DNA of 64,000 nucleotides from assembly GCA_964610875.1 (NCBI GenBank), contig CAZSWP010000002.1, positions 1 through 64,000 on the forward strand, read 5' to 3'. Positions 1,508 to 19,131 of the stretch are shown in pieces. The DNA is from an uncultured archaeon. Lineage in GTDB: Archaea; Asgardarchaeota; Thorarchaeia; Thorarchaeales; Thorarchaeaceae. The position numbers and the translations under genes are program-made. Within the stretch, counting starts at the first letter, position 1. Every line of letters begins with the position of its first letter. The notes below the pieces were generated by a model, which did no database searches, had not been told where the DNA came from, and saw only the letters and a list, made by a program, of their open reading frames with translations.

Positions 1508-2476
1508 ATGTCTGTTGATAAAAAGACCCTCATAGACCTCTACACAAAGACTCTGAAGGTCAGACTTTTTGAGGAGAAGGTATGGGACCTGTTTGGACAG
1601 AACATTGTCCCAGGAACCCTCCATCTCTATCTTGGACAGGAAGCAGTTGCTGCAGGAGTGACAGCAGCTCTCAAGAAGACTGATTGGATACAGAGTACGC
1701 ATCGTGGACATGGTCATGTAATAGCAAAGGGAGCGGACCCCAATGCGGCTCTCGCAGAACTGCTTGGGAAGAAGACTGGTTCTTGCAAAGGAAAAGGAGG
1801 CTCAATGCACATTACTGAATTTGATGCAGGTGTGCTTGGAGCCACTGGTGTGGTAGCATCGGGTCTCCCAATAGCCGTCGGAGCAGCATTATCATGTCAG
1901 ATGCGGAAAACAAAGGATGTCGTAGCCTGCTTCTTTGGTGATGGCGCATCAAATAATGGCACCTTTGGAGAATCACTGAATATGTCTGCAATCTGGAATC
2001 TACCAGTGATTTGGGTTGTAGAGAATAATTTGTATGCGATGGGCACTCCAATCAAACTCACATGCCCCTCAAGCACAATAGCAGAACGTGCATCAGGGTA
2101 TTGTATTCCAAATGAAGTAGTAGATGGAATGAACGCACTGGAAGTGTACAATGCAACAGTAAAAGCTGTAGAACGTGCCCGAAAAGGCGAAGGCCCGACT
2201 CTCATTGAATGCCAGACATATCGAATGAGAGGACATTCTCGTTTTGACCCAGCAAAATATCGCCCAGAAGAAGAAGCGAAAGAGTGGTTGAATAAAGATT
2301 CTGTAGAGATAATCAAGAAGATAGCAATAGATGAAGGTGCACTTACAGAGAAGGATGCTGAAAAGATCAGAAAGAAGCTTCAGAAGGAGATTGACAAAGC
2401 GGGAGAGTTCGCTGTTGAATCAGAATATCCTGACCCTGAAGAAGTTCATGATGATGTCTATGCGGAGGCGATCTAA
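1508..2476 (+). CDS. pdhA: TPP-dependent 2-oxoacid/acetoin dehydrogenase E1 alpha subunit
   Basis: HLYLGQEA, THRGHGH, GKGGSMH, GDGASNNG TPP motif, TYRMRGHS; substrate (pyruvate vs acetoin vs other) not determinable. Confidence 0.9.
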   Translation: MSVDKKTLIDLYTKTLKVRLFEEKVWDLFGQNIVPGTLHLYLGQEAVAAGVTAALKKTDWIQSTHRGHGHVIAKGADPNAALAELLGKKTGSCKGKGGSMHITEFDAGVLGATGVVASGLPIAVGAALSCQMRKTKDVVACFFGDGASNNGTFGESLNMSAIWNLPVIWVVENNLYAMGTPIKLTCPSSTIAERASGYCIPNEVVDGMNALEVYNATVKAVERARKGEGPTLIECQTYRMRGHSRFDPAKYRPEEEAKEWLNKDSVEIIKKIAIDEGALTEKDAEKIRKKLQKEIDKAGEFAVESEYPDPEEVHDDVYAEAI

Positions 2477-3451
2477 ATGGCAGAGATGACATACAGAGAA
2501 GCCCTAAAGCAGGGTCTCCGAGAAGAGATGAAACGAGATGACTCCGTATTTATCATGGGAGAAGATGTTGGTCTAAATTGGGGAGGCGCTTTCAAGGTAA
2601 CAAAGGGTCTTGCTGAAGAATTTGGCGAAGATAGAGTAAGAGACACTCCAATCTCAGAGAACACCATTGCGGGAGCTGCAGTGGGTGCGGCCATCACTGG
2701 AATGCGCCCTGTAGCAGAGATTATGTTTGGAGATCTCATTACACTTGCAATGGACCAAGTCTGTAATCAAGCTGCGAAGATGCGTTACATGTTCGGAGGG
2801 CAGACAGCAGTACCTTTAGTGATCAGAACTGTATTTGGAGGAGGAAAGAACATAGCATCCCATCACTCACAGAGTCTTGAGTCATGGTTCATGCACACAC
2901 CAGGACTAAAAGTAGCTGTTCCCGCTTTTGCTTCTGATGTGAAGGGTATGATCAAGACTGCAATAAGAGACCCAGACCCAATACTCTTTGCTGAACACAA
3001 ACTTGTCTACGATAAGAAAGAAGAAGTCCCAGATGATGATTACACAATACCTTTTGGTGAAGCAAGGATTCATCGAGAAGGTGCGGATGTCACAGTTTGG
3101 GCAACGTTCTTCATGGTGCACAAAGCAATAGAGGTTGCAGAGGATTTGGCAAAAGAAGGAATTAGTGTTGAAGTTATCGACCCCCGGACACTTGTTCCAC
3201 TTGACAAGAAGACACTGATTGATTCAGTTAAGAAGACGGGTAGATTAGTCTGTGTTACTGAAGAAACCCAGACTCTTGCTACGACAGCTGAGATTGCAGC
3301 TGTTGTGCAGGAGGAAGCCTTCGACTGGCTAGACGCACCTATAATCCGAGTCAATGCACCAGACACCCCGGTTCCATTCAGTCCACCACTGGAACAGAAT
3401 TTTATCCCTGACAATAAGAGAATAGCAGAAGCAATCAGAAAGATTGCCTAG
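2477..3451 (+). CDS. pdhB: 2-oxoacid/acetoin dehydrogenase E1 beta subunit
   Basis: GEDVG, DTPISE, AEIMFGD, HHSQSLE, DPRTLVPLD; abuts E1 alpha. Confidence 0.9.
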   Translation: MAEMTYREALKQGLREEMKRDDSVFIMGEDVGLNWGGAFKVTKGLAEEFGEDRVRDTPISENTIAGAAVGAAITGMRPVAEIMFGDLITLAMDQVCNQAAKMRYMFGGQTAVPLVIRTVFGGGKNIASHHSQSLESWFMHTPGLKVAVPAFASDVKGMIKTAIRDPDPILFAEHKLVYDKKEEVPDDDYTIPFGEARIHREGADVTVWATFFMVHKAIEVAEDLAKEGISVEVIDPRTLVPLDKKTLIDSVKKTGRLVCVTEETQTLATTAEIAAVVQEEAFDWLDAPIIRVNAPDTPVPFSPPLEQNFIPDNKRIAEAIRKIA

Positions 3452-3463
3452 AGGTTGGTTTCA

Positions 3464-4696
3464 ATGGTCACGACTATGATAATGCAGAGAATGAGCGTTG
3501 CGATGGAATACGGCGTCATTCTCAAATGGCTCAAAAAGGAAGGAGACAAGGTCAAGAAAGGAGACCCAGTTGTTGAAATATTTGGAGAGAAGAACGAGTT
3601 TGAACTAGAAGCTCCAGAGGACGGCATCCTTCTAAAAATACTATGTGAAGAAAACGATGAAATTCCGATAAGTGAGCCGATTGCAATCATAGGTGAGAAG
3701 GGAGAAGAGATTCCTGATATCACTCCTAAGAAACTGAATGAAGAGACAGCTGTGACAACAGCTCCTGTGACAACAACACCAACTATAGAATCTCCAAAAG
3801 TGGAAAAGAAAACAACTACCTCTTCAAGATTAGAGAGTGGTAGAATCAAAGCATCACCTAGAGCCAAAAAGAAAGCTAAGGAATTAGGAGTAGAACTACA
3901 ATTTGTTACCGGAACTGGCCCAGGTGGACGTATTATCGAAAAGGATGTTATGACTGCTCAAGACGCAGGGCCAATATCAGCACCAGTTTCTATTGGAGAT
4001 GAAAGAGAGGTTCGCAAGGTAGAAACCATGAGTCCATTGCGTAGAACGATCGCACGTAGAATGACTCAGAGTTCTCATAATCCTCACATTACTATGATCA
4101 CTGAGATAGATATGACGGAAGTTGTAGGTCTCAGACGTGAATTGAATGAGGCAATTGAGAATCAATTAAGTATTAGAATATCATTCAATGACATCATTCT
4201 CAAAGCAGTGGCAGACACACTAGAAAAGTTTCCAAAATTCAATGCTACATTGAGTGGAAATGACCTGCATATTTTCGAGGATATACATCTTGGAGTAGCA
4301 ATGGCTACTTATGACGGACTGATTGTTCCTGTAGTACGTGAAGCAAATAAGAAATCAATAACCGAGATTGCGTTGGAAACAAAATCATTTGGTATAAAAG
4401 CAAAAGAAAACAACCTCAGTCCTGAGGAACTAACCGGTAGTACATTCACAGTTTCTAATCTCGGACCATTCAAAGTTGACCTCTTCATTCCTGTCATCAA
4501 CCCTCCTGAAACAGCAATCCTTGCACTTGGCCAGATAAAGAAGAAACCTGTTGTAGTTAATGATATGATAGCTATCAGACACATGATGATGGCAAGCTGT
4601 GCAGTGGATCACCGAATACTTGATGGTGCTCCTGCTGGTCAATTCTTAGAAGCATTGAAAGAAACCTTAGAGAATCCATTCATGCTGAAATACTAA
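3464..4696 (+). CDS. pdhC: Dihydrolipoamide acyltransferase E2
   Basis: Lipoyl domain, Thr/Pro-rich linker, E3-binding domain (ASPRAKK...GTGPGGRI), catalytic DHRILDG. Confidence 0.9.
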   Translation: MVTTMIMQRMSVAMEYGVILKWLKKEGDKVKKGDPVVEIFGEKNEFELEAPEDGILLKILCEENDEIPISEPIAIIGEKGEEIPDITPKKLNEETAVTTAPVTTTPTIESPKVEKKTTTSSRLESGRIKASPRAKKKAKELGVELQFVTGTGPGGRIIEKDVMTAQDAGPISAPVSIGDEREVRKVETMSPLRRTIARRMTQSSHNPHITMITEIDMTEVVGLRRELNEAIENQLSIRISFNDIILKAVADTLEKFPKFNATLSGNDLHIFEDIHLGVAMATYDGLIVPVVREANKKSITEIALETKSFGIKAKENNLSPEELTGSTFTVSNLGPFKVDLFIPVINPPETAILALGQIKKKPVVVNDMIAIRHMMMASCAVDHRILDGAPAGQFLEALKETLENPFMLKY

Positions 4697-5307
4697 CTAG
4701 CATATTCATTTCGTTGGATGTTCTTTAATCAAAATACAATGATAATTGACATGTATACAAAGGTTATGCCAAAACTCACAATTTGCATACTTGTCAATCC
4801 GACAAAAGTCCACAGAATGGTATTTTCAGTGTTTTCTAAGACTATGACCGTTACATTTTTTGATGCACTATACTCATCTGTTTCAACTCTAAGAAGATAA
4901 TTATATGAACCGGGTGGGAAACCATAATATCTATGGAAATAGTTTCATTGCTATCGAGAATACCTTCTTGAACCAACGTTCCATTTCTATAACAAGAATA
5001 ATCCGCAACCACAGTGATTGATATATTCCATTGGATAATATTACCAGTTGTGCCTACTTGATAATCAGTTTTGCTTGGCCCTTCTATTTGAATAGGCTCA
5101 TCTGGTGAAAATTCACTCCTATCATAATAGAAGTAGTCTTCATTGATCGGCAACTCAAATACTTCACCAGCAACATAGTCACTACAGTAGAACGAACCTG
5201 AGGTGATCATCTCACCGGGATTATCCGGGTTTGGATTCCAGAGGTTCCATCCCTCAAGACCAACTTCTTCAAAGACGTGCTTGAGAATAATCGGTTTGTA
5301 TCCATAT
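4693..5307 (-). pseudogene. Remnant of a membrane-anchored surface/solute-binding protein (5'-truncated, 1-nt frameshift, internal stop)
   Basis: Restoring one base at 4925/4926 gives ...ISIDIDGFPPGSYNYLLRVETDEYSASKNVTVIV...TM...F*LKNIQRNEYAS*, matching the Ig-like repeat (IDIDGLRMGLYNFT) of the neighbouring gene; TGA at 4729-4731. Confidence 0.7.
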
Positions 5308-7272
5308 TCAAGTATAATCATAGGTTGAGCGCTTTCTTTTGAATACCATGGCAATGACAACAATCACAACAGCAAGAGAACCCATTGTAACAATAATTCC
5401 AAACATTGCCATCAAGTCATTGGGAATTCCAACATCAACATCATCAGTAGTCGTTGCAGCCAACACAGTTACTGTGACTATATCGTGAGCTTGATTATCT
5501 GAAGCGTCCCAGACGGTGATTGTCACATTATGTACACCAACTGCCAATCCATCTAAATTGAGTGAAATCGTTTCAGCAGTGGAATTCCATTGTCCTGTTC
5601 TTACAATATGACCATCCATACCAATGGCATATTGATTTGGATTATCATCTTCAGGATGCCATTCAATTGATTGTCCTGTTTGACCAACAAGAAAAGACAC
5701 ATCAGAGGGGTGGTCAATGATGGGGTCTGTTTCATCTGTTACAGTCACCATGACTGTGTCTATGGCTACATGTCCGTGGACATCCTCAACAACTAACGTA
5801 TAGTTATACACTCCTAGGGAATGACCATCAACATTCACAGTGATGTTTTCATCGGTTGAATTCCAGAGTCCATTACGAATTGGAGTATTATCCATGTAAA
5901 GGGTGTATGATGATGGATCACTATCTTCAGGATTCCAAATTATAGAATATCCGAATTCTCCCTCAGCGTAAAAGACATTACTCGGGGAGCTCAGGATTGG
6001 CGAATTTTCGAATGCAGAAAGAGGATAATACATAGAAAACTGAATAGCTTGCAAAACTAAACGATCTCCCTGCATATGATAATCATAGTATTCAGTTCTG
6101 TACATTGGTATATAATCACCATAAGGAGAAGCACCAGAAACTATGATGATTCCAGATTCTGCAGCACCAGCATTGATTTCCACCGTCATGGCCACCATAG
6201 GACCAGATTCACTATCTTCGTGAGCCACTGGCATTATTCCATCATGGTCATCGATATAGGATGCAGAACTATAGTAAAGAACAGGGTATATATCACTCAT
6301 GGGCTGGTCTATGAGATTCACAGCACCTGTGCCATCTCCATGTTCACTGCCGTACAAACAAGTTGGACCATGCATCAGAACTCCATTGACACCTTCAACG
6401 ATTGGAGAAATGAATCGAGCATCATCGGTTTCATTAGCTATAACACGGTAATCCGCATTCACGTTAGACTCAGGGTCTTCTATCTGAGTGTTTTCAGGAT
6501 AAACATGAGAGTTTACAGCTTTCAAGATTGCACTCATGTTGTGATTGACATAATGACCTTCATAATCCGCATCACCAGCAACCCATAGAAACTTCTCACC
6601 AGTGCTATACCAATCAGCAATTGCTGTAATTTCCTCTGTTGTATAATTATTCTCCTCCTGATGTATTGCTCCTATAATTAGAGCATCAGCATCAGCAAGA
6701 AGGGTGTCATTGATTCCACCTTTCGCCCAAATAACATCATAACCAAGTGCTGTAAGATTGCTTTCAAAATTTGCATCCTCCACCTCATGCGGACCATCCT
6801 CCTGTCCATGAGAATAATCGAGAATAATTCTCTTCCCGACTTCATCCACCACATAGACCCAGACGGTATCAGATGCTGTATTACTAGTTGAATCCTCCAA
6901 TAATATCGTGAAATTGTATAGACCCATTCTCAGCCCATCAATATCAATGGTAACAACTCCAGAAGTTGTAAAACCATCATCAATTGATTCTCGATTTCGG
7001 AATACCTCATAAGAAATCTCAATACTCGAATTGAAGTGCCATTCTATTGTATTCCCCGTACTTCCAGTATCGTAAGTTAACGTATTAGGCCCGTCAACTT
7101 GAATCACTGCATCATCCGCTTTGACATGTCGAGTGTCTTTATAAAGCATTAATGTACTAGGAATATTCTCCGATTTGCAAGATGTGAATTTGACTATGAG
7201 TCCGTTAGTTGAGATAAGAATTAGGGATATACATAAGAAACAAACCACGAATCTTTTAGGAATAGGGTTCAC
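5308..7272 (-). CDS. Cell-surface protein: signal peptide, three Ig-like repeats around a GATase-like/DUF4350-type domain, C-terminal TM anchor
   Basis: Repeats TGxxIxW...VDGLxxGxYNxT...DxVxVxV; ILDYSHGQ domain start; TM followed by KRKR. Confidence 0.75.
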   Translation of the reverse strand: MNPIPKRFVVCFLCISLILISTNGLIVKFTSCKSENIPSTLMLYKDTRHVKADDAVIQVDGPNTLTYDTGSTGNTIEWHFNSSIEISYEVFRNRESIDDGFTTSGVVTIDIDGLRMGLYNFTILLEDSTSNTASDTVWVYVVDEVGKRIILDYSHGQEDGPHEVEDANFESNLTALGYDVIWAKGGINDTLLADADALIIGAIHQEENNYTTEEITAIADWYSTGEKFLWVAGDADYEGHYVNHNMSAILKAVNSHVYPENTQIEDPESNVNADYRVIANETDDARFISPIVEGVNGVLMHGPTCLYGSEHGDGTGAVNLIDQPMSDIYPVLYYSSASYIDDHDGIMPVAHEDSESGPMVAMTVEINAGAAESGIIIVSGASPYGDYIPMYRTEYYDYHMQGDRLVLQAIQFSMYYPLSAFENSPILSSPSNVFYAEGEFGYSIIWNPEDSDPSSYTLYMDNTPIRNGLWNSTDENITVNVDGHSLGVYNYTLVVEDVHGHVAIDTVMVTVTDETDPIIDHPSDVSFLVGQTGQSIEWHPEDDNPNQYAIGMDGHIVRTGQWNSTAETISLNLDGLAVGVHNVTITVWDASDNQAHDIVTVTVLAATTTDDVDVGIPNDLMAMFGIIVTMGSLAVVIVVIAMVFKRKRSTYDYT

Positions 7273-7369
7273 TCAATCAACCCCCAATGTTATGAGTTGA
7301 TATAGATACGTTTCAACTACTAATAAGACCTCTGCCGAAAGAATGAAACATGTCTTTGTTTAAAGAGAT

Positions 7370-8935
7370 TCAATCTGCTTTCAGTTTGAATTTCTCTTCA
7401 ACATGTTTTCGATGAATGTTATTATAGGTACAAAACGAAATGATTCGTCCATCAGGAGTAGCATAATTAATTGTACAGTGTTGGACTCGTTCAAGATCTA
7501 AATTCCAAGGATCCTGAAAATGCATCATTCCCAACATTATCACTCTACTCATGAATGTACGAAGAGAACTATAACTGCCTGTACGAAGGAAAGATGAGAT
7601 AATTGGTTTCATAAATGATTTTTTCTTTACATGTCGTAGGAAACCCAACAGCTTCAGTTTTGATCTCAATCCTGCAAACCTCTTGCCATCAGCATAGAGA
7701 TTGCATATATCCTCTAGAACTGCAAGTAATCGCTCAATGTCAACTACTTCTGTGATTGGAACATAAGATCCATCATCATCAATGAAGAGGAAGGTTGCCA
7801 TTCCACATGCAAAATGAGCATGAAGCTCAAAAAGGTCGATACCTCGAATCAAGCCGATAGCTCTACCGACGCCCATCATAGAAGAAACAGGGTACCAGTC
7901 TTCGGCTTTGATACCACCGTTAGTTTGCTCTTCAATCAGTCGAATCGCATCTGGTGTTGTTATCCGCATCTTTTCTCGTTCTTCCCTATCGATTCTGCCA
8001 GTGATGCTGACAGGTTGGAAATTGATACAACGGACAATATCACGATTGTCCAGAGCATATTGAACAATATCCCCCAGTTCATTGTCATTTACACCCTTGA
8101 CAACAGTTGGAACCAGTATGACTCCGTCTAGGTCAGCATACCTTGCACTGTCCAATACTTTATCTTTAATATCCCTCATATCACGTCCACGAGCTGCCAA
8201 ATATGGGCCTTCTGTCACGCCATCAAATTGAAGGTAGATTGTCTTCAACCCGTTTGCTACCAATTCTTTTAGATAGTCAGGATTTCTCGCCATCCGAATA
8301 CCATTTGTAGCAATCATGATGTGTCTGAAACCCATTTCTTGCGCCCATTTCACATATTGCGGCATATTGTCACTGACAGTTGGCTCACCACCTGCAAATT
8401 GAACTGCAGGACAAGGAGCGGGAAGATTAGCTCTCAGGTTCTCAAGCATTGCATATACTTGTTCAGGGCTTGGTTCATAATATTCTGATGAGTCTGCTGC
8501 ACTCGCAAAACAGATTGGACATTGCATATTGCAACGGTTTGTGACGTCAATGAGACCTAGACCGGTATGAGCACGATGATTCGGACAGGGGCCACAATCC
8601 TTAGGACATCCATCTTTTACTTCCGTCCGGGGATTATCTATTCCGACTGTTTCATACCAATAATCCATGACTCTATAGAACATAGGAACGTCAGACCAGT
8701 AGAGTTCTTTTACTACTCCGTGAATAGGACAAACTTTTTCCATCATGACACGGTTTTTCTCTTCGAAAACGGTAGCAGGAATTACATTCACATCATCATT
8801 TTCCACGAAACAATGAGGACAGATAGAAGAAGTAGTATACGGTAATGTCTTTGGAGGAATCTTTGTCATCCGATAACGCTCAAGGTCTTCAGAATCAGAG
8901 CGCTTTGGATGGTCAACAATGGTCTTGCCAGTCAT
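7370..8935 (-). CDS. tes: Tetraether lipid synthase (Tes/GDGT-MAS family radical SAM enzyme)
   Basis: CPHC...CPIHG site, CPKDCGPCPNH, CNMQCPIC radical SAM motif, QFAGGEPT, C-terminal MHFQD...CTINYATPDGRIISFCTYN; SD GAGGAG before ATG 8935 (alternative GTG 8962 abuts crtI stop). Confidence 0.85.
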   Translation of the reverse strand: MTGKTIVDHPKRSDSEDLERYRMTKIPPKTLPYTTSSICPHCFVENDDVNVIPATVFEEKNRVMMEKVCPIHGVVKELYWSDVPMFYRVMDYWYETVGIDNPRTEVKDGCPKDCGPCPNHRAHTGLGLIDVTNRCNMQCPICFASAADSSEYYEPSPEQVYAMLENLRANLPAPCPAVQFAGGEPTVSDNMPQYVKWAQEMGFRHIMIATNGIRMARNPDYLKELVANGLKTIYLQFDGVTEGPYLAARGRDMRDIKDKVLDSARYADLDGVILVPTVVKGVNDNELGDIVQYALDNRDIVRCINFQPVSITGRIDREEREKMRITTPDAIRLIEEQTNGGIKAEDWYPVSSMMGVGRAIGLIRGIDLFELHAHFACGMATFLFIDDDGSYVPITEVVDIERLLAVLEDICNLYADGKRFAGLRSKLKLLGFLRHVKKKSFMKPIISSFLRTGSYSSLRTFMSRVIMLGMMHFQDPWNLDLERVQHCTINYATPDGRIISFCTYNNIHRKHVEEKFKLKAD

Positions 8936-8962
8936 TCTGTTCTCCTCGGACGAGTATAACAC

Positions 8963-10498
8963 CTATCCTAGTTTCCCACGTTCCAAGTCTTCAAAGATTA
9001 ATCTAGTGGTGAGGTCTGCGCTCATTATTACGCTTGGTACACCAGCGCCAGGATGGGTTCCAGCACCTACGATGTATAGGCCTTTAATGTCTCTAGAACG
9101 ATTATGAGGTCTGAACCATCCTGATTGCAACAATAATGGTTGCAACTGGAATGCCGCACCTTTGTACGAATTAAATTCAGTTTCATAATCAGCTGGTGTG
9201 AAAACCTTTGTAACCGCAAGATTGTCAGTAAGTCCTGGCAATACCTGTTCATCAAGAGTACTCAAGATATGATCCTTGAATTCCTCCTTCTTCTCTTCCC
9301 AATTTGTTTCTGAGTTGAGATTGCTCACAGGAGTACATGCATACATTGTTTCACATCCCTCAGGTGCAAGATGTGTATCTGTTCTAGTAGGAATATGCAA
9401 ATAGGTTGAAAAATCATCAGGAACAATGTTCTTCTTGAAGATGTCATTTATGAGTCCTTTATACCTTGGACCGAATACGATGCTATGATGAAGCATATCA
9501 TCATACTTCTTTTCCACACCAAAATAGGTCATGAAAAGGCTCATCGAATACTTTGCTCTCTTGTATCTTCCATCGCTATTTCTCCAACTTCGAGGTTTGG
9601 AGCCAATCATTTTCATATATGTTAAGGCAACATCAGCATTTGAAATGACAATATCAGCATCATAAGTAGTACCATTGGTTGTTGTTACACCAGTTGCTCT
9701 CTTAGACTTGTTTACCTCAATCTTATCAACTTCTGAATTGAGTTTAATCTCACCATCAAGTTCCTTAAGTAAACGTTCCATTGCCGCAACAAATTTATGA
9801 GTCCCACCTCGGACCCACCACATTCCATGTTTCTCTTCAATGTAGGTGATTAACGTATAGATTGCAGTTGCAGTAAATGGATTTCCACCAATAAATAGAG
9901 GATTGAATGAAAGGGCCATCCGTAATCTTGGGTCTTTAACATGACTGGCGACCATACCATGGACACTTTTGTATGCTTTATGCCGAATCCCAGCTGGACC
10001 CATCTTAACCATACTCCAGATGGATTTGAAAGGCATAGACCCGAACTTTTCGAAACCAAGTTCATAGATTGGTTTTACAGCTTTCATGAACTTTTTGTAA
10101 CCTTCTATGTCGTTAGGACTAAGACGTTCTACCTCTTTCAGATTGTCTTCGGAACTCCCATAATCCATTTGACTTCCATCTGGAAAATAGAGTCGATATT
10201 TTGGTGATACTTTTAGCAGCTCAACATAGTCTGTGGGATTGCGCCCTGCAAATTCAAAAATCTCATCAACCAGAAAGGGCGGCGTAATGATAGTTGGACC
10301 TGTATCAAATGTGTAACCCTTCTCCTGAAATACTCCAGCTCTGCCACCAAGTTGATGTCGCTTCTCAAGCAATGTTACTGAGTGTCCTTTAGCCTGCATG
10401 CGTATTGCAGCTGCAAGACCCCCAATTCCACCGCCAATTACTACTACCTGTTTACCTTCGTTACTGTCTTCAACTGTCACTGTTAATACCTCCCTCAT
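8963..10498 (-). CDS. crtI: Phytoene desaturase
   Basis: GGGIGG FAD fold, GGRA, FDTGPT, GGNPF, FRPHN, GAGTHPGAGVP. Confidence 0.9.
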   Translation of the reverse strand: MREVLTVTVEDSNEGKQVVVIGGGIGGLAAAIRMQAKGHSVTLLEKRHQLGGRAGVFQEKGYTFDTGPTIITPPFLVDEIFEFAGRNPTDYVELLKVSPKYRLYFPDGSQMDYGSSEDNLKEVERLSPNDIEGYKKFMKAVKPIYELGFEKFGSMPFKSIWSMVKMGPAGIRHKAYKSVHGMVASHVKDPRLRMALSFNPLFIGGNPFTATAIYTLITYIEEKHGMWWVRGGTHKFVAAMERLLKELDGEIKLNSEVDKIEVNKSKRATGVTTTNGTTYDADIVISNADVALTYMKMIGSKPRSWRNSDGRYKRAKYSMSLFMTYFGVEKKYDDMLHHSIVFGPRYKGLINDIFKKNIVPDDFSTYLHIPTRTDTHLAPEGCETMYACTPVSNLNSETNWEEKKEEFKDHILSTLDEQVLPGLTDNLAVTKVFTPADYETEFNSYKGAAFQLQPLLLQSGWFRPHNRSRDIKGLYIVGAGTHPGAGVPSVIMSADLTTRLIFEDLERGKLG

Positions 10499-10513
10499 AT
10501 AATCTATAGAATT

Positions 10514-11509
10514 CTATTTTGTTCTTGACTTCTCCAATTCTTTATACGCTTTGAGCTCTTGCTTATACTCTCTCCTACACTTGTAGGCAATCCATAGCTT
10601 CTTCCACTTTGGAACAACTGCTCGTTTCTTAAACGGATCATAATTCATCTTCTCAATCTCGGTCATTATCTCACCATAGACTCGGCCAGCTACTTTCACT
10701 GTGAAAGCCCCAGCAGGAGGAAGATCATTTAGTCCAACATCAGCTTGTGCATAGAGTGTTCTCGCACGGGCAATCTCGCTCTTCATCATCAGTCTGAAAT
10801 TGGGAGTGACTCTTCTATTTTCAAAATCCTCACGTGTGACTCTAAATCGCTCACGAATTTCTTTAGGTATGTAGATTCTACCATTGTCCCAATCTTCTGC
10901 CACGTCTCTGAGAATATTGGTCAATTGCAATGCATGCCCAAGGTCAGCCGCCCTTGCAAGTGTTTCGGTTTCAATTGCACCCCAGATATGACACATTAGA
11001 ATGCCAACAGTGGAAGCCACATGATAACAATACTTTGCTTCCTCATCTATAGTTTCAACATCCATCAGATTGAGGTCCATTCGAACGCCTTCAATCAGTT
11101 CATGTAAGTATTTTACTGGAATATTGTATCTAACAATGGTATCGCCAAATGCATGAAACAATGGGTGTTGAAACTGCTCTCCAGTCGCCATTCGATTGGC
11201 AAGGTCTTTCAGCACATTCAGCTCTTTCTCAATCTGTTCTCTTGGCAGATCAATCTCATCTGCAAAATCATCTGCCAATCTGCAAAAGCCATAGAGAGCC
11301 GCAAATGCTTTTCTATCATTATCTTCAAAATAGCGAGAAGCAAAGTAAAACGACTTGGCATGTAATTTGAAAAGATTCATGCAGTATTCGTAGCTTTGGT
11401 TGAGGTCCCATTGTCCATCCGCAGTGTCTACTATCGTAAGAATATCCGATGGCAGCACATCAAGATGTGCGGAGTAATCATCTCCTATTTCGCGATTCCC
11501 TTGCCACAT
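10514..11509 (-). CDS. crtB: Phytoene synthase
   Basis: AKSFYFAS, FCRLADDFADE, YCYHVASTVG, QLTNILRDVAED, GRIYIP. Confidence 0.92.
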   Translation of the reverse strand: MWQGNREIGDDYSAHLDVLPSDILTIVDTADGQWDLNQSYEYCMNLFKLHAKSFYFASRYFEDNDRKAFAALYGFCRLADDFADEIDLPREQIEKELNVLKDLANRMATGEQFQHPLFHAFGDTIVRYNIPVKYLHELIEGVRMDLNLMDVETIDEEAKYCYHVASTVGILMCHIWGAIETETLARAADLGHALQLTNILRDVAEDWDNGRIYIPKEIRERFRVTREDFENRRVTPNFRLMMKSEIARARTLYAQADVGLNDLPPAGAFTVKVAGRVYGEIMTEIEKMNYDPFKKRAVVPKWKKLWIAYKCRREYKQELKAYKELEKSRTK

Positions 11510-11754
11510 CTCTGTAATCTCCAGATTGAAGTAGACCAGAAATAGGTCATGGCATGGTTCTACTAATTCCGTCCCTTCTTATTTTGTTAGAAATATGTTG
11601 AGTTTACTATTATTAAATCATTAGCTATAGCTCATTGAACTCTAACGAAATGAACATTAGATATTGCCAACAAAATACAATTTGAAACCATAAATGTTTA
11701 GGGAAGGAATATTAACTGTATGAGAGACCTAGTAATGATATCTGAGGAGATGAG
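11510..11754. promoter_or_regulatory. Divergent promoter region between crtB-crtI-tes and crtD-lyeJ
   Basis: AT-rich spacer with TATA-like ATTATTAAAT (~11609-11618), perfect palindrome AGCTATAGCT 11623-11632, SD GAGGAG before crtD. Confidence 0.5.
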
Positions 11755-13221
11755 ATGAAGATAGCGGTTGTAGGAGCTGGCGTTGGTGGACTTGCAACAG
11801 CGGCCCTATTAGCAAAAGATGGCAATGAAGTATTTGTCATAGAGAAAAATGAGAACATAGGTGGACGAGCACGTGTTTGGAAAGAACAGGGCTTTGTCTT
11901 CGACATGGGTCCATCCTGGTATTTGATGCCTGAAATATTTGAACACTTCTTTGAAGCATTTGATCGGAAAGTCGAAGACTATTACAAATTGATACGTCTT
12001 GATCCTTCTTACAGGATATTCTTCAGTGACAGTACATTGGATATCTCAGCTGAATTAGAGAAGAATATGCAACTTTTCGAGAGCCTCGAAGAGAACGGAG
12101 CAGAGAAGCTGGAGGAATACCTCAAGCAAGCGAAAGACAAGTATGAATATCTGATGGAGGGTTTGATGTATGAAGATCTTGCAGGTATTAAGGATATGCT
12201 CAATCCCAGACTTATGGCGGCAGGATGGAAGCTAAGTATTTTGTCCAATATTGATAAACTCACAAAGAAGTACTTTGATAGTGAAAGAGCTAGGAAAATA
12301 CTGCAATACTCTATTGTTTTCCTTGGAGGAAACCCAAAGAACACACCAGCATTATACTCAATGATATCTCACATCGACTTGAATTTAGGTGTGTGGTATC
12401 CGTATGGTGGACTTGGGAAGATAGTGGAAGCACTAGAATCATTGTGCAATGAATACAATGTAGAAATCAAGACAGATGAGGAAGTCTGTGGCTTCAAGGT
12501 CAAAGACAAAAAAGTCACCTACGTGGAAACTGTACAAACGGAATACAATATTGATGCCGTCGTTGTGAATGCAGACTATCCACATTCTGAAATTGATCTG
12601 GTCGGGAAGGGGTACAAAACCTATCCAGAAAAATACTGGGAAAAGAAGACGATTGCTCCATCAGCTTTCGTTTTGTACCTAGGTTTTGACAAGAAATTTG
12701 ACAGTCTTACCCATCATAATGTAATTTTGGATTATGATTGGGTGAAGCATTTCGAACAAATCTTTGAGAGCCCCACTTGGCCAGATGAGCCAGCGTATTA
12801 TCTTTGTTGCCCATCCAGAATGGACGAAACTGTTGCTCCAGAAGGTCATGAGAATATATTCGTTACAATCCCTATATCCCCAGGAGTTGAAGATACACCT
12901 GAAATTAGAGAGTCTTACTTTGATAAGACATTGATACATATGGAGAAAGTTGTTGGAGAGAACATGAGAGACCATCTTGTTGTGAAGAGAATCTTTTCAT
13001 TAAATGACTTTAAAGAAGACTACAATGCATACAAAGGAACAGCTGTTGGCTTGACTCATACTTTCTCACAATCCGCATTCTTTAGACCAAGACACAAGAG
13101 TAAGAAAGTGGACAACCTTTACTATGCTGGACAATATACTCATCCAGGTATCGGTGTTCCTATGGCAATGATATCAGCAGAGATTGTTGCAGACATAATT
13201 GCAGAAGACTATGAAAAATAG
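11755..13221 (+). CDS. crtD: Carotenoid 3,4-desaturase (CrtD-type, CrtI family)
   Basis: FDMGPSWYLMP signature, FLGGNP, GQYTHPGIGVPM; immediately followed by a LyeJ-like gene as in haloarchaeal C50 clusters. Confidence 0.75.
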   Translation: MKIAVVGAGVGGLATAALLAKDGNEVFVIEKNENIGGRARVWKEQGFVFDMGPSWYLMPEIFEHFFEAFDRKVEDYYKLIRLDPSYRIFFSDSTLDISAELEKNMQLFESLEENGAEKLEEYLKQAKDKYEYLMEGLMYEDLAGIKDMLNPRLMAAGWKLSILSNIDKLTKKYFDSERARKILQYSIVFLGGNPKNTPALYSMISHIDLNLGVWYPYGGLGKIVEALESLCNEYNVEIKTDEEVCGFKVKDKKVTYVETVQTEYNIDAVVVNADYPHSEIDLVGKGYKTYPEKYWEKKTIAPSAFVLYLGFDKKFDSLTHHNVILDYDWVKHFEQIFESPTWPDEPAYYLCCPSRMDETVAPEGHENIFVTIPISPGVEDTPEIRESYFDKTLIHMEKVVGENMRDHLVVKRIFSLNDFKEDYNAYKGTAVGLTHTFSQSAFFRPRHKSKKVDNLYYAGQYTHPGIGVPMAMISAEIVADIIAEDYEK

Positions 13222-13224
13222 AGA

Positions 13225-14103
13225 TTGGACGTTGAACTGGTGACGAATATATTCAAGCTTGCATTCAAAGTTTCTCGAGTGAGGTTTTGGCTATATTTAG
13301 GAGGCACTTACCTGATCGGATACATAATCGGGCTAAACAATATCTTCGCACCAGTCACAGCTTTATTAGATCCATGGTTTCTAGTGCACGTTTTCTTCTT
13401 CATGCTACCTGCAAACATCTTCTTGTATGGAGTAAATGATATCTCGGACAAAGACACAGATATGTTTAATCCGAAGAAAGAGGACAGAGAATACAAAGCA
13501 CTTGAGAAGGACAGACTGAAGCTATATGCATTGGTTAGTACTTCCTTTCTATATGGTATTGTACTCATAATTTTGCAATCTGATTTGATAGCTGCAATTC
13601 TATTCTTTTCATGGATGCTACTATCTGTAGCATATAGTGTGAAACCATTCAGATTCAAGGCAGTCCCAATTCTTGATTTTACTTCTAATTTCCTCTATGT
13701 GATTCCAGCAATGCTTGCGTACTATCAAGTTACTACTATCATCCCTCCTTTTCTTCCATTGTTCGCAGCTTTTCTATGGACATCTGCGATGCAACTCTTC
13801 TCAGCCATTCCAGACATAGAAGCAGACAAAGCGGCTAACGTGAAAACTACCGCAGTGATAGTTGGAGCAAAGGCATCATTGATTCTTTGTTTGATATTTT
13901 GGGGAGTATTCGCTTTCATTCTAGTTGGCCTTGTTCAATGGAATTGGCCGTGGAATCTAATGATGATCGTCTATCCATTGATTCCACTCTATCTACTATT
14001 TAGACCGGAAGCGGACATAGAACGCGTCTATTGGTATTATCCAATTTACACCGGTATCTTTGGGATGGTCCTATTCCTCTCTGTAGGAATCCCATTATTG
14101 TAG
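13225..14103 (+). CDS. lyeJ: Lycopene elongase/hydratase (UbiA prenyltransferase family)
   Basis: SRVRFWLYLGG, PANIFLYGVNDISDKDTD..NPKK, YS..PFRFK, FSAIPDIEADK..KTTA; multiple TM helices. Confidence 0.85.
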   Translation: MDVELVTNIFKLAFKVSRVRFWLYLGGTYLIGYIIGLNNIFAPVTALLDPWFLVHVFFFMLPANIFLYGVNDISDKDTDMFNPKKEDREYKALEKDRLKLYALVSTSFLYGIVLIILQSDLIAAILFFSWMLLSVAYSVKPFRFKAVPILDFTSNFLYVIPAMLAYYQVTTIIPPFLPLFAAFLWTSAMQLFSAIPDIEADKAANVKTTAVIVGAKASLILCLIFWGVFAFILVGLVQWNWPWNLMMIVYPLIPLYLLFRPEADIERVYWYYPIYTGIFGMVLFLSVGIPLL

Positions 14104-14210
14104 TATACTTGGTACGATGTGTTTGATTGTGCATGTCGATATGAAATAATAGTACATATCGTATATAAGTCCATTTGCACATTATATCAAAATAGAGGTG
14201 TAGTGATAGA

Positions 14211-16001
14211 TTGAGTAAGATATTGAGAATAAATATGGATGATCTAAGTCATAAATGGGAGGGCATACCGGCCAAGTATGAACACTATGCTGGTCGTGCT
14301 TTCACAACGGCAGTAGTCAATGATGAGGTGGACCCAACTTGTCATCCTCTTCGTGAGAAGAACAAGTTTGTGATATCACCAGGATTGCTTGCAGGAACTT
14401 TGGCTCCCTCATCCGGACGATTAAGTGTGGGGGCAAAGTCACCTCTCACAGGGGGAATCAAAGAAGCCAATGCTGGTGGTCTTACAGCAACAAGACTTGC
14501 AAAGATTGGTATTAGAGGCGTGATAATAGAGGGGATACCAAAATCCAACAATGATTGGTACAGTATAATCATTGGCAAAGATAAGTGTGAGATTAAGAAG
14601 ACTAATGATTATGCAGGGATAGGACTCTATGACCTAATCACAAAGATTTGGAAAGACTATGACAGTAAACCAGGAATCATCGGAGCAGGTATAGCTGGTC
14701 AAAGACTGCTGAAAGGCGCAGGGGTCTTTGGTAATAATATTGAGAATAGCGACCCGGGAAGATACGCTGGACGTGGTGGCCTTGGAGCAGTTCTCGGCTC
14801 GAAGAGAATTGTTGCAATAATAACTGATGACACAGGTGGAGAACGGCCTGCACCAAAGGACAAAGAACTCTTTGAAGACGGTAGAAAGAAAATGGTCAAA
14901 GCATTGAATGACCATCCTGTCACTGGCAGATTGAACGACGATGAAGGAAATCCATTTGGTGGACTAAAGAACTATGGGACTAACATCCTTCAGAATATCC
15001 TAAATGAGGCAGGAGGACTTCCGACGCGTGGTTTTAGTTCAGGAAGATTCGACCATGCTGCAAAGATTTCAGGTGAGGCGGTTCACGAGTTAGTAGACAA
15101 AACAAAAGAAAAGTTCGGTGACAAAGCAGAAGGTAAGTATGGACATCCTTGTCATCCTGGATGTATCATGGCATGTTCTAACGTTGTACCCTATGAGGAC
15201 ACTGGTAAAGCACAAGTTTCACCACTGGAATATGAATCTGCTTGGGCGTTAGGCACAAATCTTGGTATTGGAAAACTACATGATGTGGCGGAATTGAACC
15301 GTTTGTGTAATGATATTGGACTTGACACTATTGAAGCTGGAAATACAGTTGCCATGCTCATGGAAGGTGGACTTATTGAATATGCTGATGGCGAGGCGGC
15401 AATAAAAGCACTAAAGGAAGCCTACAAAGAAGACTCAGCGATTGGCAAACTGGTATGTGCAGGAACTCAAACAGCAGGCGAAGCTCTTGGAGTCACTCGA
15501 ATCCCAGTTGTCAAAGGACAAGCCCTTCCTGCATACGACCCAAGACCAATTCGAGGGATAGGAGTTACCTATGCAACAACTCCAATGGGTGCAGATCACA
15601 CGGCTGGATATACTATCGCAGCAGAGATTCTAGGAATCAAGGGAGAAGTCACAGATCCAAGAGGATTGGAAAAAGCTGAACTATCAAGGAATTTCCAAGC
15701 TACCACAGCCTATATCGATGCCAGTGGATACTGTCTATTCATTGCTTTTGCCATACTAGATGATGACGATGGATTTCAAGGTATGATGGACACGGTGAAT
15801 GCTTTCCTCGGAGAGAAAATCGACGTTACTGAATACGGACTTGATATCCTCAAGATGGAGCGCGACTTCAATAAGAGAGCTGGCTTTACAAACAAAGACG
15901 ACAGACTTCCAGAGTTCTTCAGTACTGAGCCATTACCTCCTCATAATGTTACATTCAATGTAACTGAGAAGGAACTTGACGATGTGTACGAAGGTATGTA
16001 G
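14211..16001 (+). CDS. aor: Tungsten-dependent aldehyde:ferredoxin oxidoreductase family protein
   Basis: KSPLTGGIKEANAGG, AGRGGLGAVLGSK, CHPGCIMAC, EYES, GLDTIE, YDPR, GADH. Confidence 0.9.
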   Translation: MSKILRINMDDLSHKWEGIPAKYEHYAGRAFTTAVVNDEVDPTCHPLREKNKFVISPGLLAGTLAPSSGRLSVGAKSPLTGGIKEANAGGLTATRLAKIGIRGVIIEGIPKSNNDWYSIIIGKDKCEIKKTNDYAGIGLYDLITKIWKDYDSKPGIIGAGIAGQRLLKGAGVFGNNIENSDPGRYAGRGGLGAVLGSKRIVAIITDDTGGERPAPKDKELFEDGRKKMVKALNDHPVTGRLNDDEGNPFGGLKNYGTNILQNILNEAGGLPTRGFSSGRFDHAAKISGEAVHELVDKTKEKFGDKAEGKYGHPCHPGCIMACSNVVPYEDTGKAQVSPLEYESAWALGTNLGIGKLHDVAELNRLCNDIGLDTIEAGNTVAMLMEGGLIEYADGEAAIKALKEAYKEDSAIGKLVCAGTQTAGEALGVTRIPVVKGQALPAYDPRPIRGIGVTYATTPMGADHTAGYTIAAEILGIKGEVTDPRGLEKAELSRNFQATTAYIDASGYCLFIAFAILDDDDGFQGMMDTVNAFLGEKIDVTEYGLDILKMERDFNKRAGFTNKDDRLPEFFSTEPLPPHNVTFNVTEKELDDVYEGM

Positions 16002-16014
16002 TAAGCACAAAAAG

Positions 16015-16049
16015 ATGGGAACTGATTGTTCCCATTCTCATTCTTTTTT
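16015..16049 (+). terminator. Hairpin plus T-tract after aor
   Basis: ATGGGAAC(16015-22)/GTTCCCAT(16028-35) 8-bp stem followed by TCTCATTCTTTTTT. Confidence 0.6.
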
Positions 16050-16094
16050 GCCATAGCAAACTGCTTATTTATTTCAGAATTAGAGGTATATTGA

Positions 16095-16403
16095 ATGATA
16101 GAAGTTCATCTTTATGGCTGTCTCCGCAAACTAGTTCCAGAAAGCAAAGCCAGTGATGATACTTCACTTCACCTCGAAGCCAAGGATAACGAAACCTTTT
16201 CCCAACTCATATCAAGACTGGGATTGAAAATGAAAGACCTTGGTGATTGTTTTCTCAATGGAACCCTTGTGAAACCGGATGACATCATAATAGATGGTGA
16301 CAGACTAGGGCTCTTTCCATTTAATATGGTACTTCTATGTGGGGGGCAACACCTGAAAGGGCACGGATATACAAAATCAGACGTTGATATGGATTATTAC
16401 TAG
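16095..16403 (+). CDS. MoaD/ThiS-like beta-grasp protein with C-terminal extension
   Basis: IEVHLYGCLR...FLNG...DGDRLGLFP; internal CGG followed by QHLKGHGY... tail. Confidence 0.7.
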   Translation: MIEVHLYGCLRKLVPESKASDDTSLHLEAKDNETFSQLISRLGLKMKDLGDCFLNGTLVKPDDIIIDGDRLGLFPFNMVLLCGGQHLKGHGYTKSDVDMDYY

Positions 16404-16411
16404 GTTGACAA

Positions 16412-16687
16412 ATGATGGAAATTCGAGTCAAACTCTATGCGACCCTAAGGAGATTTGCACCAGAAGGAACGGAGATCGGAGAATCTTTTCCAAAGGAGTT
16501 TGATGGAACTACTATTGCGGACTTGGTAGATTCTTTTGGCATCAAAAAAAAACTCGCTAAGATTATTATGGTTAATGGAATTAGAGTCACATCCCTAGAG
16601 CATACACTAAATAATGGAGATGAGGTGGTCATCTTTCCACCCGTCGGAGGTGGCTCCTGTGACAGAAGGAATGACACTCATACGTAG
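16412..16687 (+). CDS. moaD: MoaD/ThiS/SAMP ubiquitin-like sulfur carrier
   Basis: VKLYATLR...MVNG...GDEVVIFPPVGGG then 10 extra residues; downstream of aor. Confidence 0.8.
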   Translation: MMEIRVKLYATLRRFAPEGTEIGESFPKEFDGTTIADLVDSFGIKKKLAKIIMVNGIRVTSLEHTLNNGDEVVIFPPVGGGSCDRRNDTHT

Positions 16688-17450
16688 CACAAAGAATCTC
16701 TTTCTCACAATGTTCATGTTTGCCTTTTTCTTCTCTAGTTGGCTTGTGGTAAATGTTGCGATAGGAGAGGCAGAAACATGGGTATCAGCCATTTTCATTG
16801 TTATATTGGCAGTTCCTTCATACTACTATATTTACAAATGGGCAGGTCCAAAGAAAGCACTTGTAATCATTCTCATTTTCTCCATTGTCCCCATAGTGGT
16901 TGAATCAATTGGAATTTCTACAGGCTTTCCCTATGGAGGGTTTCACTATACAGACAGGATGGGGTTCAAAATCTTTGGTCTTGTCCCTTGGAGTGTTGCC
17001 TTCGCATTTGCCCCATTGGTACTAGGTAGTCTAACAATTGCATCTAGACTCAGAAAAGCATATGTCGTACTACCATTGGGTGCTCTTATTCTCGTCATTG
17101 TAGACCTTGTCTTAGATCCTGCAGCTGTAGTTCTGAATATTTGGGAATGGGATGTGCCAGGACCCTACTATGGAATACCCATCATAAATTATACTGGATG
17201 GTTCCTCACTGCATTCATCTCAACTTCTTTGATGCATCTTCTGACGATGGACACACTACAAGAAGTACAGACAATCCCATCAGATGTGGCAACGAGCCTC
17301 CTTCTGAGTCTATCATTCTGGACTGGATTCACTTTCTGGATTGGTTTCTTAATACCAACAATAATTGGCACAGCTATGTTAGCAATCTCATACCATCAGA
17401 TAATAATACAACCAACACCGGGAGATACAGTCCAAGACTTTGATATATAG
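16659..17450 (+). CDS. cruF: Bisanhydrobacterioruberin hydratase / carotenoid biosynthesis membrane protein (CruF/DUF422)
   Basis: ESIGISTGFPYGGFHY, GLVPW, DLVLDPAAV, YYGIPIINYTGW; start GTG 16659 (SD GGAGGTG) or ATG 16671. Confidence 0.8.
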   Translation: MTEGMTLIRSTKNLFLTMFMFAFFFSSWLVVNVAIGEAETWVSAIFIVILAVPSYYYIYKWAGPKKALVIILIFSIVPIVVESIGISTGFPYGGFHYTDRMGFKIFGLVPWSVAFAFAPLVLGSLTIASRLRKAYVVLPLGALILVIVDLVLDPAAVVLNIWEWDVPGPYYGIPIINYTGWFLTAFISTSLMHLLTMDTLQEVQTIPSDVATSLLLSLSFWTGFTFWIGFLIPTIIGTAMLAISYHQIIIQPTPGDTVQDFDI

Positions 17451-17461
17451 AAGTCATCCAT

Positions 17462-17614
17462 TCAACATTGATTACCCAATTCTGCGAGCAGGTATACCAT
17501 GTTACAGGCTTTGCATTTGATTGCCGAGTAGACAATTTTCTGACCCATTAGACGTAACTCATAGACGAGCAATTTCCACGATGTGTTACCGCATGATTCG
17601 CATTCAATCACCAT
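17462..17614 (-). CDS. Small zinc-ribbon protein (50 aa), absent from ORF track
   Basis: MVIECESCGNTSWKLLVYELRLMGQKIVYSAIKCKACNMVYLLAELGNQC*; two CxxC knuckles. Confidence 0.65.
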   Translation of the reverse strand: MVIECESCGNTSWKLLVYELRLMGQKIVYSAIKCKACNMVYLLAELGNQC

Positions 17615-17687
17615 ATTTTATCATCAAACAGGTAATTTTACCTCGCAGATTAAGGGGAGCTTATATTATCAACTATGCACATACTGA

Positions 17688-17809
17688 TGACACGGCTTTG
17701 ATATCCGTGTCAAGCCTCGAACTTTGACATCTGCTCCGAGCCTCTTAGGACCTCTCTCCAGAGGCTCCGTCGGTGGTACACCTTCATCTACCACCGGCAC
17801 TATTTTCTT
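17688..17809 (+). ncRNA. Candidate three-hairpin small RNA
   Basis: Perfect 8-bp stems 17688-95/17705-12, 17738-45/17760-67, 17771-78/17789-96; TATA-like TTATATTA ~17661-68 upstream and CTATTTTCTT downstream; strand inferred from these signals. Confidence 0.5.
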
Positions 17810-17930
17810 GATGAATGTATGTTATTTTCGATGAAGCATATTATGTAAGTAATATCCGGATAAGACTATGAGAAAATATTATATGCTATTTAAAGCAATT
17901 ATAACATGCTTGCCGTGCTGGTGGACGACT

Positions 17931-18725
17931 TTGACTTGGCGATTACTTGAGGATGAAGAACATAACCCAAAAAAAAGCCTCGCTCTTGAAGAGGCAATCG
18001 CCAGAACATGTGCTAACTCGGGACCGAAGTGCAACACGCTTCGTTTTTGGACATCAAAACCATCAGTTGTGATAGGGAGATTTCAGTGTGTTCACAAGGA
18101 AGTAAATCTTGAATTTTGTAAGAAGAATGACATAGATATTGTTCGTAGATTTACTGGAGGGGGAGCTGTATATCATGATGAGGGAAATCTAAACTTCACG
18201 TTGTGTTTGGATCAATCAGAATCTTATGTTTCACGAACTCTAAACGAGTTATATTGGAACTTCATTGGGACAATAGCAACAGGTCTCCAAGAGATAGGCA
18301 TACCTGCAAGATTCGATGCATACAGGTCGTGCATTAGGATAAATCAGAAAAAAATTACTGGGACTGCAGGTTGGATCAAGCAAGGAGTGTCCTTTATTCA
18401 TGGTACTCTATTAATAGATGCAGACTTGCAGATGCTAAGGAGGAGTATAACACCACCACCAGACCAACCAGAATATCTGAGGGATAACCGCCGAATTCGT
18501 TGCATTGAAAGCAAAAGGGACATCGTTACGACTATCAATAAGGAAATAGAAAAACCCCCTAGTGTAGAGCAGATCCGTAAGACAATAGTATACACCATGG
18601 AAAGAATCTCTGAGCAAAGAGTAGAACCAGGTGACTTCTTCGAAGAAGAATTAGAGCTTGCAGAGTCCTTATATGAGAACCGCTATAGACAACCTGAGTG
18701 GAACTTGGGTACATTAGCCCAATAG
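17931..18725 (+). CDS. lplA: Lipoate-protein ligase A (catalytic domain only)
   Basis: VVIGRFQ, VRRFTGGGAVYHDEGNLNF, KITGTA, HGTLL; probable TTG start after GGTGG SD. Confidence 0.85.
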   Translation: MTWRLLEDEEHNPKKSLALEEAIARTCANSGPKCNTLRFWTSKPSVVIGRFQCVHKEVNLEFCKKNDIDIVRRFTGGGAVYHDEGNLNFTLCLDQSESYVSRTLNELYWNFIGTIATGLQEIGIPARFDAYRSCIRINQKKITGTAGWIKQGVSFIHGTLLIDADLQMLRRSITPPPDQPEYLRDNRRIRCIESKRDIVTTINKEIEKPPSVEQIRKTIVYTMERISEQRVEPGDFFEEELELAESLYENRYRQPEWNLGTLAQ

Positions 18726-18756
18726 GTTCGTCAATTAATACAGGAAGCATTTACAA

Positions 18757-19107: not shown

Positions 19108-19131
19108 GATGCGCCTATCTAGCATTTCATT

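Follow-up and report, generated by a model that had tools for sequence, protein, structure and literature searches.

The crtB-crtI-Tes2 unit

Tes2, an additional copy of the tetraether lipid synthase Tes, is encoded directly behind the carotenoid genes crtB and crtI in a 64,000-nt stretch of DNA from an uncultured Thorarchaeial archaeon (contig CAZSWP010000002.1, positions 1 to 64,000; hereafter the window, meaning this whole stretch). Tes is also known as GDGT-MAS, where GDGT stands for glycerol dialkyl glycerol tetraether. The enzyme family itself is already known; what is new is a clade of accessory Tes paralogues tied to a carotenoid context. We propose, with a probability of roughly 0.58, that Tes2 acts as an accessory isozyme of tetraether synthase and is expressed together with genes for C50 carotenoids.

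The unit consists of three open reading frames (ORFs) on the minus strand. Its first gene, crtB (10514-11509, 331 aa), encodes a putative phytoene (or squalene-type) synthase (PF00494 SQS_PSY, 235 bits) and is followed after 15 nt by crtI (8963-10498, 511 aa), which encodes a bacterial-type phytoene desaturase (TIGR02734, 583 bits). The Tes2 ORF (7370-8962, 530 aa) abuts crtI with a gap of 0 nt when read from a GTG at 8962, and leaves a junction of 27 nt (8936-8962) when the gene is read from an ATG at 8935 (7370-8935). A GAGGAG motif stands at Shine-Dalgarno (SD) distance ahead of this ATG, and a database protein of 521 aa (P0001) is the Tes2 product called from it; because of the SD-like motif and the product on record, ATG 8935 is the likelier start. 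The junction is too small to hold a terminator. At three further loci (L075, L076 and L077) SD-like motifs are found in crtI-Tes2 gaps of 33-71 nt, and over all compared junctions the gaps measure 27-71 nt with such motifs present. A first-pass annotation, made from the sequence alone, had described crtB, crtI and a full-length Tes homologue as co-oriented, with gaps of 15 nt and 0-27 nt, and this layout is confirmed here. The spacing (15 and 27 nt), the common orientation and the SD-like motifs suggest that the three genes are most likely co-transcribed.

Tes2 retains the ligands of characterised tetraether synthases

Tes2 scored 596.4 bits against the family model NF045702 'tetraether lipid synthase Tes' (cut-off 450), covering profile positions 2-484 of 486, and its residues 43-527 align to the solved Methanocaldococcus jannaschii (Mj) GDGT-MAS (PDB 7TOL) with an E value of 1e-144. 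Ligands were mapped with a 77-sequence alignment and the cofactor description of Lloyd 2022 (PMC9433317). The rubredoxin-type site CX2C...CX2H comprises C48, C51, C78 and H81 (Mj C9, C12, C33 and H36), and the PF23545 zinc ribbon is matched with 53 bits. The ligands of [4Fe-4S]N are C119, C123, C126 and H129 (Mj C73, C77, C80 and a conserved His). The radical-SAM (S-adenosylmethionine) cluster motif CX3CX2C, C144/C148/C151, is invariant in Tes1 (the other Tes copy of this genome), Tes2 and the outgroups. C386, C496 and C511 are invariant as well and are allotted to [4Fe-4S]C, the choice of the three binding cysteines being based on conservation and not on coordinates. Met480, the M of MHF, corresponds to the labile Met439 of the Mj enzyme, and Tyr500 to its strictly conserved Tyr459. 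All of these ligands, together with Tyr500, are 100% conserved within the Tes2 clade, and the motifs HAHFACG, CTINYA, MMHFQD and FCTYN are all present in the translation. The alignment to the GDGT-MAS ligands thereby bears out the earlier reading that the metal-binding, M-H-F..D and Tyr motifs are complete. Judged by its sequence, Tes2 is most likely a second tetraether lipid synthase whose catalytic machinery is intact.

Two small deviations from the family consensus, HAHFACG and CTINYA, had also been pointed out in the first-pass annotation. They are real when Tes2 is compared with other archaea, in which the first motif is of the HPxCG type rather than HFACG and a His rather than an Asn precedes the Tyr, but they are not special to Tes2: Tes1 of the same genome has STHFACG and HCDVNYS, and the deviations are seen in all Thorarchaeial Tes1. 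Since Tes1 carries them too, they are a trait of the lineage and not a mark of the paralogue. HFACG and C-x-I-N-Y were accordingly rejected as markers of a new function.

Tes2 is a fast-evolving copy additional to Tes1

The genome that contains the window is a 3.75-Mb metagenome-assembled genome that is 95% complete with 5.8% contamination. It was checked for a second canonical tes, and one was found: Tes1, at C1:128716-130170, scores higher than Tes2 against NF045702 (635 versus 596 bits) and is 56% identical to it. When 27 members representing the broader family were included in a tree, Tes1 and Tes2 came out as sister clades (support 100) within archaeal Tes, so that the earlier description of Tes2 as a paralogue holds; the characterised enzymes were not named rows of this tree and were compared through the PDB match and NCBIfam controls. 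Freyarchaeum has one Tes copy that is basal to Tes2 and a second that falls outside Tes1 and Tes2 together. When sequences were clustered at 50% identity, Tes2 was grouped under a Tes1-type representative.

We surveyed 87 Thorarchaeia species genomes, counting as Tes2-type any copy with at least 66% identity. A Tes match is present in 77 of them and Tes1 is near-universal; Tes2 occurs in 14, and is additional to Tes1 in 13 of these. Identities between the window genome and five others are 79-83% for Tes1 as against 68-72% for Tes2. There are 34 sites conserved solely in Tes1 and three conserved solely in Tes2, the other copy being variable in each case, and this imbalance argues for relaxed rather than new constraint. 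Differences fixed between the two clades number 24 and are mostly conservative, with L263R, S381H, G441F and D453P among the non-conservative ones. Tes2 differs at only two of the columns conserved across the family, and both replacements are unfixed: P364G is carried by 71% of Tes2 sequences and Y486W by 64%. The pattern fits a faster-evolving accessory copy under relaxed constraint, unlike what would be seen for a newly constrained active site.

Short Tes-like fragments were seen in other Thorarchaeia genomes (G008:C1:305603-306838 and G007:C112:38644-39049). The C-terminal pieces are 64-65% identical and the internal pieces 37-52%, which suggests that they are decayed Tes copies.

Tes2 and the crt genes occupy a polymorphic slot

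In the window, the crt genes and Tes2 lie between the gene for a 2-oxoacid dehydrogenase E2 subunit and that for a lipoate-protein ligase (LplA). This gap (window 4697-17867; L060-L064, L075, L076, L079, L081 and L083-L087) is a polymorphic slot in Thorarchaeia. Its left flank, with the genes for E1alpha, E1beta and E2 (1508-4696, plus strand), is syntenic in all relatives examined, and its right flank, with those for LplA, a CMD-family protein and a zinc alcohol dehydrogenase (17868-20175), is likewise syntenic in relatives (both assigned with Pfam). The slot is empty in G010, G014, G004, G019 and G011. It holds the crt cluster only in G006, G016, G001, G012 and G098, and Tes2 only in G060 (= GCA_004524565) and L059. 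In the window (genus code g1), G051 (g8) and L075 it holds both, with Tes2-crtI-crtB running divergently from crtID-lyeJ-cruF. The crtI-Tes2 junction is as in the window in G089 (g3, a short contig) and in the contig of P0007. The crtB-crtI-Tes2 layout is therefore found in at least five lineages (g1, g3, g8 and two metagenome contigs) of one Tes2 clade, which settles in the affirmative whether the adjacency of Tes and crt is conserved. The idea that it is unique to the window genome was overturned by G051, G089, L075 and the P0007 contig.

When the Tes2 tree is rooted with Tes1, Freyarchaeum is basal, followed by g12, g9, g7 and g2, all of which have Tes2 elsewhere in the genome, and then by a derived clade (support 100/99). 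This clade contains five adjacent cases, two that have Tes2 alone in the slot, G047 (in which Tes2 lies 54 kb from crt) and two unplaced in context. Since all adjacent cases belong to this one clade, a single relocation of Tes2 behind crtI, with one further move and a single loss of the crt genes afterwards, would be the simplest history. Six Tes2 orthologues (g2, g7 and g9) lack crt genes within 8 kb; in g2 and g7 the neighbours of Tes2 include the genes for ThrRS and saccharopine dehydrogenase. The Tes2 tree is at odds with the genus codes, and this discordance hints that slot content may be exchanged by recombination between the conserved flanks.

Two further observations concern individual slots and genomes. 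The slot of G060, which holds Tes2 only, has a 37-aa 2-oxoacid_dh fragment (L074 9584-9697) immediately upstream of that gene; the fragment may have been left behind by the rearrangement in which the crt genes were lost. In G047 (= CP070761, a complete genome) a co-oriented Tocopherol_cycl (PF14249) gene follows Tes2 (L054 11732-12730), and the crtI match is limited to query residues 5-318, making this gene possibly truncated.

Tes2 and crt co-occur across genomes

Among the 87 genomes, a crtI orthologue was found in 19, or 20 if G021, with crtID and cruF at a contig end, is counted. Tes2 and crt are both present in 12 genomes, Tes2 only in two, crt only in eight and neither in 65 (Fisher p = 5e-8, over related genomes). 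For genomes at least 90% complete the corresponding counts are 9/0/4/28 (p = 2e-6, again over related genomes). Put differently, 12 of the 14 Tes2 genomes have a bacterioruberin-type cluster, as compared with 8 of the 73 without Tes2. Because the genomes are kin, the p-values overstate the association. Joint gain or loss is trivial where Tes2 and crt are adjacent. The two are nevertheless present together in eight genomes (g2, g7, g9, G047 and G098) in which they lie 21-54 kb from each other or are unlinked.

Proposed role of Tes2 and alternatives

In the mechanism that we propose, the radical-SAM chemistry of Tes2 would join terminal sp3 carbons of the saturated phytanyl chains of archaeol-type lipids, and the products would be GDGT, GTGT (glycerol trialkyl glycerol tetraether) or macrocyclic archaeol, as for characterised Tes/GDGT-MAS. 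Tes1 would serve as the core copy in Thorarchaeia and Tes2 as the accessory one. A single ancestral event would have placed Tes2 behind crtB-crtI inside a bacterioruberin-type island, in the slot between E2 and lipoate ligase, where it would be transcribed from the crtB promoter and translated from its own ribosome-binding site. Carotenoid synthesis and the formation of additional tetraethers would thereby be turned on jointly as one membrane-remodelling response. Tetraethers and C50 carotenoids are both membrane-spanning isoprenoids, and both stiffen or protect membranes. The conserved position of Tes2 after crtB-crtI, together with its association with the carotenoid island, speaks for expression of the additional synthase alongside the C50 carotenoid genes, and since related species keep the layout it is probable that both membrane-lipid pathways are switched on together. 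The ether-lipid substrate and this physiological purpose are what we consider most likely on the evidence of the genes. Two alternatives had been put forward in the first-pass annotation. Co-regulation of two membrane systems is favoured by the adjacency and the co-occurrence, while a carotenoid or polyprenyl substrate is unsupported, given that the ligands and the Tyr are kept, that the motif deviations recur in Tes1, that constraint is relaxed and that Tes2 exists without crt.

Several points weigh against an isozyme co-expressed with carotenoid genes. Where a region is syntenic in general, neighbouring genes can stay together by inertia, and the co-occurrence counts are not independent, as the genomes are related. 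Tes2 is unlinked from crt in approximately eight genomes. In the complete genome of Freyarchaeum both Tes types are present, but SQS_PSY, crtI and cruF gave no match; in G060 the slot is fully assembled and contains Tes2, but crtB and crtI are found nowhere in the genome; and four high-quality genomes (G012, G099, G050 and G065) have crt without Tes2. Since each persists without the other, any coupling of Tes2 and crt would be facultative. Furthermore, a second Tes copy does not have to perform well as a GDGT synthase, because the second copy of Methanosarcina acetivorans, MA_1114, made macrocyclic archaeol only, and in trace amounts (Zeng 2022, PMC8941075).

It is possible, but rather unlikely, that the arrangement is a positional accident, in which a redundant or back-up Tes2 happens to sit in a recombination-prone E2-LplA slot where accessory genes gather, and has no regulation or purpose in common with crt. 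This would agree with the four states of the slot (empty, crt only, Tes2 only and both), with the housekeeping neighbours ThrRS and saccharopine dehydrogenase in g2 and g7, with the relaxed constraint on Tes2 and with the fact that Tes2 or crt can each be lost alone. An accident accounts poorly, however, for the co-presence of Tes2 and crt even where they lie on separate contigs or at a distance of 21-54 kb (g2, g7, g9, G047 and G098), for the presence of crt in all nine Tes2 genomes of at least 90% completeness, and for a Tes2 that is co-oriented 27-71 nt behind crtI and retained there in four of about six descendant sub-lineages.

We regard it as improbable that Tes2 carries out a new chemistry, coupling or cross-linking terminal sp3 methyl carbons beyond those of two archaeol tails to give an undescribed membrane lipid. 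Candidate substrates would be the saturated hydroxy-isopentyl ends of C50 carotenoids, a carotenoid and an ether lipid to be joined together, or some other polyprenyl chain. A specific form of this, for which the odds seem to us just as poor, is that Tes2 of the derived clade was recruited to the carotenoid pathway, where it would cross-link C50 end groups mutually or to an ether-lipid tail and so yield an anchored or dimeric membrane-spanning pigment lipid. To our knowledge, a pigment lipid of this kind, dimeric or covalently anchored, has yet to be described. The conserved crtB-crtI operon context and the genome-wide association with the carotenoid cluster would suit such a role. The carotenoid-directed reading keeps some life because Tes2 is always extra beside Tes1 (13 of 14 genomes), because bacterioruberin-making Halobacteria have Tes homologues and no GDGT (Zeng 2022, PMC8941075), and because the CrtI-family enzyme Has acts on archaeol, so that the two enzyme worlds cross over (bioRxiv 2025.10.20.683597). 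Set against this, the active site shows no re-tooling, as the two differing family-conserved columns are unfixed (P364G, 71%; Y486W, 64%) and newly conserved Tes2 sites number three versus 34 in Tes1 only. A Tes2-type gene exists without any crtB/crtI match in G060 and in the complete genome of Freyarchaeum, eight genomes have Tes2 and crt unlinked, and the solved GDGT-MAS takes fully saturated phytanyl termini and not unsaturated chains, with non-specific head-group binding (Lloyd 2022, PMC9433317). A haloarchaeal parallel for a Tes-crt link was not borne out either at the single locus looked at: the sole haloarchaeon-like Tes homologue examined, P0234 (634 aa, very acidic; L088 7317-11905), adjoins a methyltransferase gene, lies approximately 2 kb from a bacteriorhodopsin gene and has no crt genes nearby.

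Equally improbable is a product-specialised isozyme unrelated to carotenoids, with Tes2 favouring one product, such as macrocyclic archaeol or GTGT, or particular head groups or chain modifications, and Tes1 making bulk GDGT: MjGDGT-MAS makes both macrocyclic archaeol and GDGT (Lloyd 2022, PMC9433317) while MA_1114 makes only the former (PMC8941075), and some of the 24 clade-fixed differences are non-conservative (L263R, S381H, G441F and D453P), but no residue-to-product rule is known and the crt association would be left unexplained.

Relation to known systems

With the characterised GDGT-MAS/Tes enzymes (MJ0619, PDB 7TOL/7TOM; MA_1486; Saci_0703) Tes2 shares the four-cofactor architecture, the complete set of ligands with the labile Met, and the Tyr. 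It differs from them in being extra beside a core Tes1, in its restriction to 14 of 87 genomes, in its faster evolution and, in the derived clade, in being the third gene of a crtB-crtI unit. Two Tes copies have been reported in 22 of 322 methanogen genomes (Zeng 2022, PMC8941075). Like these second copies, of which MA_1114 is an example, Tes2 is a second homologue per genome whose role is uncertain; unlike MA_1114, it stems from an independent duplication and is sister to Asgard Tes1. No carotenoid linkage of MA_1114 is reported in the literature that we searched. Asgard lineages have already been surveyed for tes (PMC12042123), and our literature search returned no description of an Asgard Tes paralogue clade or of any Tes-crt linkage, nor a paper combining GDGT-MAS and carotenoid.

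Conserved gene order and co-occurrence thus link an accessory Tes clade with a carotenoid island of the bacterioruberin type. If Tes2 is a co-regulated isozyme, tetraether content and carotenoids would be tuned jointly, and if its product differs, a new lipid would be added; either way, the Tes copy number of Thorarchaeia is unsuitable as a single marker of GDGT.

Carotenoid genes around Tes2

For the window crtB, the CrtB equivalog models (161-181 bits) and HpnD (214 bits) all scored under their NCBIfam cut-offs. Its orthologues (60-66% identity) are invariably paired with crtI, and it is because of this constant pairing that we provisionally assign it as a phytoene synthase. The score of crtI against TIGR02734 lies well above the cut-off of 238, and the protein matches Pantoea CrtI (PDB 4DGK) over its full length with 457 bits (E = 5e-136). 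CrtI-family proteins can act on archaeal ether lipids, as the hydroxyarchaeol synthase Has, a CrtI-family hydratase of M. acetivorans, exemplifies. The window crtI differs from Has in its closeness to the 4DGK phytoene desaturase and in being always paired with a phytoene-synthase-type gene. A Has-like ether-lipid hydratase was considered for crtI and judged unlikely because of the full-length 457-bit match to Pantoea CrtI, a comparison that did not include Has itself.

On the plus strand, crtID (11755-13221) encodes a desaturase of the bifunctional phytoene desaturase/3,4-desaturase type (NF058655, 678 bits, cut-off 640). It is followed by a lyeJ-like gene for a UbiA prenyltransferase of the lycopene elongase type (13225-14103; PF01040; NF009516, 273 bits, cut-off 205) and, after an insert, by a cruF-like carotenoid hydratase gene (16614-17450; PF04240, 146 bits). 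The insert (14211-16687, plus strand) comprises an aldehyde:ferredoxin oxidoreductase (AFOR) gene (PF01314/PF02730) and two ubiquitin-like (Ubl) genes of the ThiS type (PF02597). Among the loci compared, it was seen between lyeJ and cruF only in g1 and g2 (L061 and L062); at those outside g1/g2, lyeJ and cruF adjoin each other. Encoded together, crtD/CrtID, a LyeJ-type prenyltransferase and CruF make up a predicted bacterioruberin-type C50 gene set.

The set of crtB, crtI, crtD/CrtID, lyeJ and cruF around Tes2 resembles the haloarchaeal bacterioruberin pathway of Haloarcula japonica (Yang 2015), with crtID, lyeJ and cruF forming a co-oriented cluster in the window from which crtB-crtI diverges. 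It differs from the haloarchaeal pathway in its Asgard host, presumably of sediment, in the Tes paralogue within the cluster, in the AFOR gene and two Ubl genes of g1 and g2, and in being known from genes alone.

The spacer between crtB and crtID (11510-11754) presumably holds the promoters of both directions. An alignment of eight orthologous spacers revealed a conserved TATTATTAAAT box; as TATTATTAAAT(C), at approximately 11640-11665 of the window, it is kept in the crtB/crtID spacer of most orthologous loci and is probably the TATA element of one of the two divergent promoters.

Genes downstream of Tes2

Downstream of Tes2 and on the same strand lie a 170-aa ORF and the gene for a 654-aa PKD-domain protein (4851-7272, minus strand), which are possibly carried on the same transcript as Tes2. 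Both are missing from the corresponding position in L075 and L079. The 170-aa ORF (4851-5363) is 35-40% identical to part of SBP_bac_5-type proteins of approximately 700 aa, which adjoin Tes2 in g7 and g12 (L028, L032, L078 and L082); it may be a gene fragment that moved along with Tes2, or may merely reflect a common domain.

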